From IMG/VR virus record IMGVR_UViG_2778261635_000007, positions 1 through 3,295 of that record: a stretch of 3,295 nucleotides of DNA. One strand, given 5' to 3'. The stretch is from a virus (taxonomy: Duplodnaviria; Heunggongvirae; Uroviricota; Caudoviricetes). A program made the position numbers and the translations under genes. Under the pieces are notes generated by a model, which searched no databases, was not told the origin of the DNA, and saw only the letters and a program-made list of their open reading frames with translations. Position 1 is the first letter of the stretch; every line of letters begins with the position of its first letter. Of this stretch, positions 1 to 3,295 are shown in pieces.

Positions 1-486
1 GTGGGTGTCGGCATTCCGGCATGTTCCTGTTTAGATGATCCAGGCGCATACAAAGCTGGTTATGCAATCTGCCGTTCTGCAGATTTTAACTCATGGGAAT
101 ATGTGCCAGACCATCGCGGTGAAATCATCTATAGCACCGAAACAGGAGAATCGAAAGAAATCACAGCTCCGGGTGATTACCCTGATAATACAACCACTAT
201 CGCCCCGTTAACGCCATATGATAAATGGGATGGTGAGAAATGGGTGACGGATACTGAGGCACAGCATAGTGCCGCAGTAGACGCGGCAGAAGCAAAGCGC
301 CAGTCACTGATTGATGCAGCAATGGCTTCCATTAGTCTGATTCAGCTGAAATTACAGGCCGGGCGGAAACTGACGCAGGCAGAAACAACCCGGCTTAACG
401 CTGTGCTGGATTACATTGACGCGGTGGCGGCAACAGATACCAGCACCGCGCCGGATGTCATCTGGCCTGAACTGCCGGAGGCGTAG
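1..486 (+). CDS. Phage tail fibre assembly protein (Tfa/U family), 5' end outside the window; copy in the currently expressed orientation
   Basis: Frame 1 is open from the window edge to TAG at 484-486. The translation ends in DTSTAPDVIWPELPEA, the C-terminal motif shared by lambda/e14/Mu-type tail fibre assembly proteins, and contains an SWEYVPDHRGE block resembling the Tfa N-domain. The GTG at position 1 is very unlikely to be the real start; the true start is probably 80-100 nt upstream. Confidence 0.8.
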   Translation: MGVGIPACSCLDDPGAYKAGYAICRSADFNSWEYVPDHRGEIIYSTETGESKEITAPGDYPDNTTTIAPLTPYDKWDGEKWVTDTEAQHSAAVDAAEAKRQSLIDAAMASISLIQLKLQAGRKLTQAETTRLNAVLDYIDAVAATDTSTAPDVIWPELPEA

Positions 487-895
487 GCCATTCAATATCT
501 GGCGCACCGGAAGTATCGACCAGTTCCAGTGCGTCCAGATAATCCAGCCATAAATTATATTGTTCCAGCTCGTCACCTTTCAGACGACCAATAGCAGCTT
601 TGCCGGGCCATTGTTTACTGTTCATGTATTCGTTGGCCTGATTAATTAATAGCTGTCTTTTTGACTCAGAAATTTCAATAAGTTCTTCATGCGTGGGTGA
701 AGGAATATCTGCCCACGCAGGCATTCCGTCTGCACCTGCAATACGTCGCTTACCCTGCGGAGGTGTCGCCATAAACGACTCGGCACGTCGGGTTTCAATA
801 TCTTTTGCATCATCAGGCCATGTGCCGGAATCGCGGTATACGGCCTCATTACCAGCCAGATAAAACGCATTTTTTTTAGCACTGTATTTGTACAT
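458..895 (-). CDS. Phage tail fibre assembly protein, alternative copy (145 aa) in the silent orientation
   Basis: 145-aa ORF ending in VDTSGAPDIEWPTPPAVQAR, the same Tfa C-terminal motif. Its ATG (895-893) lies 1 nt after the TAA (899-897) of the upstream tail-fibre module, suggesting translational coupling. It converges on and overlaps the + strand Tfa gene by 29 nt (458-486). Confidence 0.8.
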   Translation of the reverse strand: MYKYSAKKNAFYLAGNEAVYRDSGTWPDDAKDIETRRAESFMATPPQGKRRIAGADGMPAWADIPSPTHEELIEISESKRQLLINQANEYMNSKQWPGKAAIGRLKGDELEQYNLWLDYLDALELVDTSGAPDIEWPTPPAVQAR

Positions 896-896
896 A

Positions 897-1316
897 TTAT
901 TTCCCTACCGCAATCCAGAAAAATGAACTCATGCTGGCTACTGGTACTCCGCCCGCTGTTGGAATCATCAGATTTCGGACGCCGCATCCTAAATTAGTTA
1001 TCGTTGGCGCTGAAATTACTGGCGACTGAACTACGTTAGGAAGCGATACCTGCTGAGGACCAAATCCCACATACATCGGGTATGCAGAGAACGCGACAGG
1101 AAACGTAATAAAGACCTCTCCAGTTGATGATGGATTGGCTGTCCCCCACTGAATAATCAGACCTGACGGTAATTTTTGCCAGCCAGGGCTGGTCAGGCTG
1201 GATGTGAAGTTATTCATATCCGGTATCTGATTTTTCCCTGTCCCCACATTCCGTTTTGCCGCTTCTCCCAAACCAACGTTTATGAAAATGCAGAGATAAT
1301 GGCTAACTGGCATCAT
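897..1316 (-). CDS. Tail fibre protein C-terminal variable module (promoterless alternative host-specificity segment); the in-window ATG is probably not a real start
   Basis: ORF on the - strand whose frame runs through the crossover site at 1263-1288. The translation is Gly/Pro/Ser/Thr/Val-rich, typical of tail-fibre distal domains, and it is immediately followed by a Tfa gene. The arrangement matches the Sv' U' half of Mu G / P1 C / e14 P invertible segments. The functional protein would only be made after inversion fuses it to the constant 5' part of the fibre gene outside the window. Confidence 0.6.
1263..1288. other. Site-specific DNA inversion crossover site (hix/gix/cix/pix family), invertase-proximal copy
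   Basis: TTCTCCCAAACCAACGTTTATGAAAA is an imperfect 26-bp palindrome. It matches the recalled Salmonella hixL site (TTCTTGAAAACCAAGGTTTTTGATAA) at 20 of 26 positions, including the central AA dinucleotide, and sits 55 bp upstream of pin at the junction with the tail-fibre module. Confidence 0.7.
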
Positions 1317-1343: not shown

Positions 1344-1898
1344 ATGCTTATTGGCTATGTACGCGTGTCAACAAATGACCAGAACACCGATTTGCAACGT
1401 AGTGCGCTGAACTGCGCGGGATGTGAGCGGATTTTTGAGGATAAAATCAGCGGCACTAAGTCCGACAGACCGGGGCTGAAAAAACTGCTCAGGACATTAT
1501 CGGCAGGTGACACTCTGGTTGTCTGGAAGCTGGATCGGCTGGGGCGTAGTATGCGACATCTGGTCATTCTGGTTGAGGAGTTGCGCGAACGAGGCATCAA
1601 CTTTCGTAGTCTGACTGATTCAATTGATACCAGCACACCAATGGGACGCTTTTTTTTCCATGTGATGGGTGCCCTGGCTGAAATGGAACGTGAACTGATT
1701 GTTGAACGAACAAAAGCAGGACTGGAAGCTGCTCGCGCACAGGGACGAATTGGTGGACGACGTCCCAAACTTACACCAGAACAATGGGCACAGGCCGGAC
1801 GACTAATTGCATCAGGAGCTCCTCGCCAGAAGGTGGCGATTATCTATGATGTTGGTGTGTCAACTTTGTATAAGAGGTTTCCGGTCGGAGATAAATGA
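1344..1898 (+). CDS. pin: Serine-recombinase DNA invertase (Pin/Gin/Cin/Hin family), 184 aa
   Basis: ATG at 1344 preceded by AGGGGA (1332-1337) with a 6-nt spacer; TGA at 1896-1898. The N-terminus MLIGYVRVSTNDQ carries the catalytic Ser of small serine recombinases, and a C-terminal helix-turn-helix-like region (GAPRQKVAIIYDVGVSTLYKRF) follows. Near-identical, from memory, to E. coli e14 PinE. The longer ORF from 1176 in the track is an upstream in-frame extension without a ribosome-binding site. Confidence 0.92.
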   Translation: MLIGYVRVSTNDQNTDLQRSALNCAGCERIFEDKISGTKSDRPGLKKLLRTLSAGDTLVVWKLDRLGRSMRHLVILVEELRERGINFRSLTDSIDTSTPMGRFFFHVMGALAEMERELIVERTKAGLEAARAQGRIGGRRPKLTPEQWAQAGRLIASGAPRQKVAIIYDVGVSTLYKRFPVGDK

Positions 1899-2160
1899 AA
1901 CCGTAGCACGTCGTATGCAAGAACGTGCCACGGCTGGCTGATGGACGTTCGATAGCGCGAGTTTGAATGAAAATCAGCCGGAGATGATTTTACATAATTG
2001 CTACGGAATTATTCAATACAGGAATTGCTTGTGTCTGCATGGATTGACCTGAAATAGTCCCGAAAATTTCTCTAAAAAACCCGAAAAAAATGGTAACTAA
2101 TTGAATGTATTAATATGTAATGGTACGTGTTAGGGATTAAAAGATGAGCATGAATTTATT

Positions 2161-2173
2161 TAACGCATTGATT
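2161..2173 (-). promoter_or_regulatory. Candidate IHF binding site in the att arm
   Basis: TAACGCATTGATT matches the reverse complement (YAANNNNTTGATW) of the IHF consensus WATCAANNNNTTR at all defined positions, about 30 bp from the att core. The consensus is degenerate and the region is AT-rich, so a chance match is possible. Confidence 0.25.
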
Positions 2174-2195
2174 CTAAAAAATTTTGTTGCTTGTT

Positions 2196-2228
2196 GACGA
2201 AAACAGGAATCGTGTTCGGTCTCTTTTT
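2196..2228 (+). terminator. Hybrid (partly degenerate) intrinsic terminator derived from the SdsR terminator
   Basis: Left arm GACGAAAAC (2196-2204), 7-nt loop AGGAATC, right arm GTGTTCGGTC (2212-2221), then TCTTTTT (2222-2228). The stem has one bulge and one mismatch, whereas the native SdsR hairpin as I recall it is a perfect 10-bp stem. Confidence 0.45.
2203..2228 (+). ncRNA. sdsR: 3'-terminal fragment of the SdsR (RyeB) sRNA, a partial copy acting as prophage attachment core; the SdsR body is absent
   Basis: ACAGGAATCGTGTTCGGTCTCTTTTT matches the recalled 3' end of E. coli SdsR (ACAGGAATCGTATTCGGTCTCTTTTT) with one mismatch. The about 80 nt upstream is AT-rich and does not resemble the GC-rich SdsR body, so this is a displaced 3' end rather than the intact gene. 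Confidence 0.55.
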
Positions 2229-2362
2229 ATCTGTTAAAAGCCAGAAGCATTTCCTTCGCTGACTTTATAGTCAACCATAACACACACTCTACTGTCTGAG
2301 TCCAGCGTTTTTTAACATTCTTGTTAAGATTATGTGATCTTTAGCGCGGGAGGAAAATATTG

Positions 2363-3019
2363 ATGAAACAGCCTGCGCCCGTTTATCAGAGAATTGCGGG
2401 TCATCAATGGCGACATATCTGGCTTTCTGGCGATATACACGGTTGTCTTGAGCAGTTGCGCCGCAAATTATGGCATTGTCGTTTTGATCCGTGGCGAGAT
2501 TTACTTATCTCAGTGGGAGACGTTATCGATCGTGGGCCGCAAAGTTTACGTTGTCTGCAGTTACTGGAACAACATTGGGTTCGTGCGGTAAGAGGCAATC
2601 ATGAACAGATGGCGATGGATGCGCTGGCATCCCAGCAGATGTCTTTGTGGTTGATGAATGGCGGCGACTGGTTTATTGCGCTGGCAGATAATCAACAGAA
2701 ACAAGCGAAAACGGCGCTGGAAAAATGTCAGCATTTGCCCTTTATTCTTGAAGTACACAGCCGCACCGGCAAACATGTTATTGCTCATGCCGATTATCCA
2801 GATGATGTTTATGAATGGCAAAAGGACGTTGATTTGCATCAGGTCTTGTGGAGCCGCTCACGATTAGGTGAACGCCCAAAAGGGCAGGGAATTACAGGTG
2901 CTGATCATTTCTGGTTTGGTCATACACCGTTGCGACATCGCGTGGATATTGGCAACCTGCATTATATTGATACCGGTGCTGCCTTTGGGGGCGAACTGAC
3001 TCTTGTGCAATTGCAATAA
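2363..3019 (+). CDS. pphA: Serine/threonine protein phosphatase 1 (PPP-family, lambda-phosphatase-like metallophosphoesterase), 218 aa
   Basis: ATG at 2363 with GGGAGG at 2348-2353; TAA at 3017-3019. The metallophosphatase signature is present: GDIHG, GDVIDRG, GNHE. Length and sequence match my recollection of E. coli PphA/PrpA. The TTG at 2360 used by the ORF track is a less likely start. Confidence 0.85.
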   Translation: MKQPAPVYQRIAGHQWRHIWLSGDIHGCLEQLRRKLWHCRFDPWRDLLISVGDVIDRGPQSLRCLQLLEQHWVRAVRGNHEQMAMDALASQQMSLWLMNGGDWFIALADNQQKQAKTALEKCQHLPFILEVHSRTGKHVIAHADYPDDVYEWQKDVDLHQVLWSRSRLGERPKGQGITGADHFWFGHTPLRHRVDIGNLHYIDTGAAFGGELTLVQLQ

Positions 3020-3211
3020 TTAAAAATCACCGTACTCCTGCGCAGGTCGCCAGAAACCATCTATAAAATCCTCAATCGGAAAACAACCGCCCTGGCGGAT
3101 CCGTTGATCGCTCATAGAATGAAGACACTGCTGTTCCGTGTTGTAGACATCCACAACAATATCTTCACAACCGCCATCCAGGTAGCAAACAAAAAGTACC
3201 AGCGCGAACAT
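3020..3211 (-). CDS. yebW: Small conserved protein, probably YebW (63 aa); start uncertain, ORF is open to the window edge
   Basis: Convergent with pphA, with a stop codon abutting the pphA stop. Starting at the internal ATG (3211-3209) gives exactly 63 aa, the length I recall for E. coli YebW, which lies next to pphA. A GGGG motif sits 4-5 nt upstream of that ATG. The identification rests on synteny and length only; I do not recall the YebW sequence. Confidence 0.4.
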   Translation of the reverse strand: MFALVLFVCYLDGGCEDIVVDVYNTEQQCLHSMSDQRIRQGGCFPIEDFIDGFWRPAQEYGDF

Positions 3212-3295
3212 TTCATCCCCGAAGTGTGGTGCCGTACCGTTAAGTTTAGGAGAGATTTTACAACGGGGGAATAACCAGGACAAATAACCCGCCAT

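Follow-up and report, generated by a model that had tools for sequence, protein, structure and literature searches.

A host ryeA promoter orphaned by a prophage integrated into the 3′ end of sdsR

The window, by which we mean the whole 3,295-nucleotide stretch of DNA analysed here, spans the attR junction of a prophage whose insertion site lies within the last ~26 bp of sdsR. As judged by alignment, its positions 2229-2362 are the unaltered host spacer between sdsR and pphA and hold the mapped sigma-70 promoter of ryeA. We consider it likely that this intact promoter at attR reads leftward through the phage arm to a hairpin, giving a chimeric non-coding RNA of ~376 nt. A preliminary description of the interval had proposed an orphaned RyeA promoter at the junction; on the evidence of the sequence the feature is real and this central inference is right, with the coordinates of the promoter corrected below.

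The ryeA promoter and its position

Sequence alignment showed that the K-12 MG1655 chromosome is base-for-base identical to window positions 2203-2362 and differs at 8 positions over 2363-3295, whereas the homology stops at 2202/2203, with the phage arm to the left. In the K-12 RefSeq annotation pphA occupies 1922313-1922969 (minus strand), ryeA 1923066-1923337 (plus strand, 272 nt) and sdsR 1923104-1923207 (minus strand). By colinear mapping, the ryeA +1 (K-12 1923066) falls on window position 2266 of the minus strand, the sdsR 3′ end (K-12 1923104) on 2228 and the pphA ATG on 2363. RyeA would thus begin 38 nt past the 3′ end of SdsR and 97 nt short of the ATG of pphA, on the strand opposite to pphA. 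The window gene corresponding to K-12 pphA lies at 2363-3019 (plus strand) and is followed by yebW from 3020 (minus strand). The identity to K-12, the RefSeq coordinates and the published primers all agree with the earlier proposal, which located the promoter and 5′ end of RyeA between the SdsR 3′ end and pphA, within 2229-2362 on the minus strand.

The oligonucleotides used by Choi et al. (2019, PMC6610125) allowed the individual elements to be located. The hexamer mutated with primer PM_RyeAF is ACCATA on the plus strand, that is, TATGGT on the minus strand, and is found at 2279-2274. Primer BHIA+10R ends at RyeA +10, which corresponds to 2257, primer 3RACE_RyeAF (AAAGTCAGCGAAGGAAATGC; opening AAAGTCAGCG...) begins at 2266, and the K-12 RyeA_NP oligonucleotide (CGTGTTCGGTCTCTTTTTATCTG) matches 2213-2235. 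In K-12, primer extension gave three adjacent RyeA starts, of which 5′ RACE gave the most downstream; in vitro, ryeA was transcribed by the sigma-70 holoenzyme only; and substitution of the -10 hexamer by CTCGAG removed RyeA from Northern blots and lowered the ryeA reads by 6.62 log2 units (Table S1 of Choi et al. 2019, PMC6610125). The most downstream start in the window is A2266 (+1), and from the wording "1 or 2 nucleotides" in the same paper the remaining two would be at 2267 and 2268, so that the start cluster spans 2266-2268 on the minus strand.

Upstream of TATGGT, the nearest -35-like hexamer is TGGACT (2304-2299), with a poor spacer of 19 nt. We read the TGT at 2282-2280 of the minus strand (T2282, G2281, T2280) as a TGn motif, which, by the general rule for such promoters, would make this an extended -10 promoter. 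A generic consensus scan for sigma-70 promoters found no promoter-like site on either strand within 2229-2362, and hence the ryeA promoter is recognisable only by its homology to the mapped K-12 element.

Two other hexamers on the minus strand had been put forward as possible promoter elements in the preliminary description, TATAAA at 2269-2264 and an adjacent TTGACT at 2275-2270. TATAAA is located exactly there; TTGACT occupies 2274-2269 (2275-2270 reads GTTGAC) and so fills the gap between the ryeA -10 and the +1. Both resemble the sigma-70 consensus and are on the correct strand, but they share one base, leaving no spacer between them, and TATAAA contains the mapped +1. Moreover, mutating TATGGT alone abolishes RyeA in K-12, a result which, together with the start-site mapping, already refutes a promoter composed of these two hexamers. 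We give practically no chance to the idea that they form the RyeA promoter, or a second one.

Since the promoter elements and the first 64 nt of transcribed host DNA are identical to K-12, RNA polymerase should initiate here as it does in K-12, and we infer that the promoter is active in the lysogen, where TATGGT at 2279-2274 and its TG extension would direct starts at about 2268-2266 on the minus strand. A promoter that is effectively silent or irrelevant in the lysogen, owing to nucleoprotein complexes at attR, silencing of the AT-rich DNA or rapid decay of the product, appears very unlikely to us. In its favour, RyeA of K-12 is a short-lived RNA with a monophosphate at its 5′ end, Int and IHF sites would be expected in the AT-rich arm, and a review of the Salmonella work reports lower ryeA transcription in lysogens, although that decrease concerns the RyeA body at the other junction. 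Against this stand the promoter DNA itself, which from upstream of the -35 to +64 is of host origin, identical to K-12 and more than 60 bp from the junction, the activity of the K-12 promoter in all growth phases, and the predicted 3′ hairpin, which would stabilise the RNA. Int, IHF and possibly H-NS bound to the arm could nevertheless change the output of the promoter.

The attR junction and its separation from the RyeA body

Insertion of the prophage at the sdsR 3′ core, as proposed earlier, was borne out by the alignment of attL, attR and the intact attP of a sequenced phage. The att core (ACAGGAATCGTGTTCGGTCTCTTTTTA, 2203-2229) corresponds to the 3′ end of sdsR and lies between phage DNA and host DNA. 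A three-way alignment of K-12, the attL of E. coli strain PEC422 and the window gave the shared core ACAGGAATCGT(G/A)TTCGGTCT(C/T)TTTTTA, common to attB, attL and attP except for two polymorphic positions, 2214 (G/A) and 2223 (C/T). PEC422 is the closest complete genome, 100% identical over window positions 1850-2420. Its prophage of ~41.7 kb lies between yebY and pphA in the order yebY, attL, int ... pin, attR, pphA, with int and xis beside attL at the yebY end and the invertase gene, annotated as pinE, at the pphA end. On the yebY side, attL holds the sdsR promoter and the complete SdsR, with the 3′ half of the SdsR terminator supplied by the phage. In phage PP818812.1, attP is uninterrupted, with arm, core, arm and then int in one piece, and window positions 1906-2229 are 85% identical to the attP-adjacent arm of this phage. 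PP818812.1 is recorded as 'Actinobacillus phage vB_Apl-pPE4', a surprising host, because its intact attP matches the 3′ end of E. coli sdsR and the 85% stretch spans the region just past pin, the arm and the core.

The consequence of the insertion for ryeA can be seen from the distribution of the Rfam matches. The SraC_RyeA family (RF00101) scored 175 bits in K-12 and 179 bits at the PEC422 attL, and SdsR scored 114 and 118 bits, respectively. A permissive-threshold Rfam scan of the window returned two weak matches only, to the Shigella sRNA CssrB and to SraC_RyeA, the latter with 29.2 bits at 2232-2129 of the minus strand; this is below the gathering score of 37, so the window holds no full-length RyeA/SraC RNA above that score, and only the first ~40 positions of the model align convincingly, at 2232-2193. 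This split (179 bits at the far junction versus 29 in the window) means that the body of RyeA has been severed from the promoter, whose transcription must enter the phage arm, as the preliminary description had supposed. The ryeA promoter is truly orphaned: of RyeA, no more than the initial 64 nt (2266 down to 2203) remain attached to it. The native segment retained downstream of the +1, 2203-2265 on the minus strand, does not differ from K-12 and takes in the complement of the 3′ half of the SdsR terminator. The folding energy of the SdsR terminator was -16.8 kcal/mol at attL and -15.8 kcal/mol in K-12, in comparison with -7.3 kcal/mol (z 0.1) at attR. The attR remnant was rejected as a working terminator for either strand, as it does not fold as one.

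Several features of the two junctions were noted in passing. The sequence AATACAGGAAT in the phage arm (2015-2025) repeats the left edge of the att core at 2200-2210 (AAAACAGGAAT; K-12 has GAATACAGGAAT) and may be an extra core-type binding site for the integrase. At the PEC422 attL (locus L002, 5219-6567), int (5491-6567, minus strand) is directed towards the RyeA body (5363-5219), which has no promoter there, and the stretch between the two drew no terminator call; read-through of the int mRNA could therefore supply RNA antisense to SdsR. The PEC422 prophage (L002, 6925-22335) is also rich in regulatory RNAs, with Rfam-level matches to RalA, sok, DicF, C4 and IsrK.

The junction is not confined to this record. 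The yebY-pphA spacer is in one piece in 5,189 of the 5,426 complete E. coli genomes but not in the other 237, and in 227-228 of the 5,426 the host flank adjoins the same arm. Among these are O26:H11 str. 11368 and strains of O103, O45:H2, O111 and O55:H7. The same attR is present in 22 IMG/VR contigs, across which the 110 host-flank bases that include the promoter show one T-to-C change, found in four contigs. In E. coli O26:H11 str. 11368 (locus L125, 1829-3340), which has the same attR arm and ryeA promoter (RyeA +1 at L125 3337), the type III effector gene nleG7 (L125 1829-2479) lies past the arm instead of pin. This gene is on the same strand as the transcription from the ryeA promoter, with the conserved hairpin (2969-3008) between them, and read-through of the hairpin would there be sense to nleG7.

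The phage arm and the hairpin at the pin stop codon

The phage side of the window begins with an invertible tail-fibre module (1-1343), in which a tail-fibre assembly gene (1-486, plus strand) faces an opposed one (458-895, minus strand), the two overlapping at 458-486, and an alternative tail-fibre C-terminal fragment (897-1316, minus strand) adjoins pin. This segment is unlike that of PEC422, though the right end of the window is 100% identical. The pin-type DNA invertase gene (1344-1898, plus strand), a homologue of which is annotated as pinE in PEC422 and many other genomes, is the last prophage gene and is convergent with transcription from the ryeA promoter. It is followed by an ORF-free stretch of ~300 bp (1899-2202), most of which (1936-2202) is, by ORF search and attP alignment, the AT-rich, non-coding P arm of attR. 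No minus-strand ORF of at least 20 aa was found between 2266 and 1932. From the ryeA promoter, transcription would therefore run leftward through the att core into AT-rich, ORF-free phage DNA.

At the far end of the arm we found a hairpin (1935-1899) that, with its tail, covers 1889-1935. On the minus strand it has a 14-bp stem and a folding energy of -22.7 kcal/mol (z -3.1), which makes it a stable, GC-rich stem-loop, and it is followed by the tail UUUCAUUUAU, whose last eight bases are 1898-1891; the tail is U-rich and interrupted, with 7 U in 10, and extends over the stop codon of pin (1896-1898). Folded as a whole, the predicted RNA (407 nt) was no more stable than shuffled sequence (z -0.22), so only this 3′ hairpin stands out. 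Its loop and inner stem (20 nt) were found in at least 119 viral contigs, as 31 variants of which almost all adopt the same fold. In an alignment of 27 distinct variants, 95.2% of the cells were paired, compared with 20-61% in slid controls, four pairs changed on both sides, and none of 500 shuffles reached the observed pairing or covariation score. The hairpin is common to many lambdoid and pin-carrying phages, where it is placed between the tail-fibre or invertase genes and attP (in HK97, locus L003, 1510-1550). Its left flank varies widely and its right flank is conserved, placing it at a mosaic boundary.

We regard this element as a candidate intrinsic terminator of the minus strand, and the folding and conservation data are consistent with that prediction. 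The evidence on the strand served by the hairpin is, however, mixed. Read on the plus strand, the window's hairpin contains an A.C mismatch and lacks a U tail, and among the variants the plus-strand tail is never U-rich. In the nine outer pairs, which are those left unfixed by the search pattern, 92.6% of the cells are paired on the minus strand versus 86.8% on the plus strand, with 20 G.U cells versus 6. By contrast, the per-variant folding energies favour the minus strand in 13 variants and the plus strand in 18; the tails also vary among the phage variants, that of the commonest other variant not being U-rich. The partial Rfam match to CssrB (1872-1932, plus strand) places the hairpin at the 3′ end of a plus-strand RNA; a literature search on this Shigella sRNA found nothing relevant.

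A consensus scan called no minus-strand terminator in 1850-2450. It skipped the hairpin, whose loop of 9 is longer than the maximum of 8 that the scan accepts, and since it also missed the experimentally defined RyeA terminator, its silence on the hairpin is not decisive. Earlier minus-strand terminators or promoters within the arm were considered and set aside: the scan gave three promoter-like matches versus 1.3 +/- 1.1 expected and no terminator call, an uninformative outcome.

In our preferred reading, leftward transcription from the ryeA promoter would meet the hairpin and its U-rich tail (1935-1889) at the pin stop codon and would yield an RNA of ~376 nt, composed of 64 nt of RyeA and ~310 nt of phage arm, whose overlap with pin would be 10 nt or less. 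This bears on the earlier suggestion that the transcript would be antisense to pin: the entry into the phage arm holds, whereas the antisense part is doubtful, as the hairpin ends on the pin stop codon. A long antisense RNA over pin and the invertible tail-fibre segment, by which expression of the Pin invertase could be lowered through RNA pairing or polymerase collision, is in our estimation unlikely, albeit not negligibly so. The promoter is intact and points towards pin, no canonical minus-strand terminator was called in the region scanned, and with its interrupted U tract the hairpin may terminate only partially. However, a strong, conserved and covarying hairpin followed by UUUCAUUUAU is positioned exactly between the arm and the pin stop codon, and an untranslated RNA of ~370 nt is also open to Rho-dependent termination. 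Wide antisense transcription across pin is thus the less likely outcome. A Rho-dependent stop may also occur earlier in the untranslated arm, or some transcripts may read through into pin, and transcription that begins at the ryeA promoter could still run into rightward transcription exiting pin in the direction of pphA.

Expected consequences for SdsR, pphA and the lysogen

Choi et al. (2018/2019) described an RNA toxin-antitoxin pair formed by SdsR and RyeA. RyeA of K-12 pairs over the entire length of SdsR; transcription of ryeA also interferes with that of sdsR and with sdsR-pphA read-through, and in growing cells it holds down SdsR and pphA. The SdsR-antisense portion of RyeA would be missing from the chimeric RNA, and the complementarity left, to the SdsR terminator, would amount to ~26 nt with one mismatch and one G.U pair. 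With so short a complementarity, RyeA-like action on SdsR, which involves full-length pairing and collision with sdsR transcription, would be lost. Nor would the chimeric RNA qualify as the antitoxin of this pair as defined by Choi et al. (2018/2019), which needs pairing with the whole 104-nt SdsR and convergence on the sdsR promoter: it would be complementary to ~26 nt of the SdsR terminator, and the sdsR promoter is ~41.7 kb away in PEC422. By removing the RyeA promoter from the locus, the prophage should free SdsR from RyeA control.

The prophage also cuts pphA off from its sigma-S-dependent promoter. In K-12, pphA is read mainly from the sigma-S sdsR promoter via read-through of the sdsR terminator, and its older heat-shock promoter is further upstream than the sdsR promoter; the prophage now lies between pphA and both of them. 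The interval 2229-2362 had been thought to contain the pphA promoter as well. Our results speak against this, since the scan found no plus-strand sigma-70-like site in 1850-2450 and the K-12 experiments point to the sdsR promoter as the main origin of pphA transcription. With the terminator remnant at attR defective and no plus-strand promoter-like site, pphA may depend on read-through from pin in the lysogen, which may be its only visible source of transcription.

We think it improbable that the chimeric RNA, which would be expressed constitutively wherever this junction is present (~4% of complete E. coli genomes), is a functional product of lysogeny and not a by-product. If it were functional, transcription of the attR arm might alter the occupancy of Int, Xis or IHF and thereby the frequency of excision, or alternatively might block phage-to-host read-through into pphA. 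A second version would apply to O26:H11 str. 11368, where partial read-through of the hairpin would bring nleG7 under a host sigma-70 small-RNA promoter.

The ryeA promoter and, from work in Salmonella in 2008, the insertion hot spot were already known, and our result is confirmatory and describes an ordinary case, one more host promoter reading into the end of a prophage. What is gained is the precise placement of the promoter, of the start site and of the likely stop. The predicted rewiring by lysogeny would affect ~4% of sequenced E. coli, including Shiga-toxin strains of O26, O103, O111 and O45.

Comparison with known systems

The ryeA locus of K-12 (Choi et al. 2019, PMC6610125) is the same as that in the window from at least -96 to +64, including the -10, the starts, the strand and the position. 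It differs in its product: K-12 RyeA is a 272-nt transcript that is fully antisense to SdsR and has its own terminator near yebY, whereas the transcript predicted from the window would leave host DNA after 64 nt and enter the phage arm. In PEC422 the RyeA body is ~41.7 kb from the promoter, at attL.

In lambda and HK97, the int-attP-sib/tI arrangement likewise has a structured RNA element located across attP from int, which integration parts from int and moves to the attR end, beside host DNA. Homologues of the window's hairpin occur between the tail-fibre genes and attP of HK97 and other lambdoid phages. It is nevertheless not an equivalent of lambda sib/tI: neither the HK97 nor the lambda sib sequence matched the window in alignments, and the annotated sib of HK97 (TTAGCGCAAG...CTTGCGCTAA) is another element, neighbouring the shared hairpin, which lies beyond it as a separate one; the window has nothing that corresponds to this sib. 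RNase III retroregulation by the hairpin is therefore not implied.

A precedent is PhiW104 of Salmonella DT104, which uses the same site. According to a review of Balbontin et al. (2008, J Bacteriol 190:4075), its insertion changed the 5′ part of ryeA, lowered ryeA and raised ryeB. The two systems share integration in the last ~23 bp of ryeB/sdsR, internal to ryeA, which leaves SdsR restored and RyeA deprived of its promoter and native 5′ part; in our case the host is E. coli and the phage another one. The phage at this site has an early region with recET, kilR, ralR and RalA, contractile-tail and baseplate genes and the pin invertible tail-fibre segment. The reviews on PhiW104 deal with the levels of RyeA and RyeB, and not with what becomes of RNA made from the orphaned promoter at the opposite junction. 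The expected loss of RyeA effects on SdsR fits the decrease in ryeA and increase in ryeB given for PhiW104 in the review of that work.
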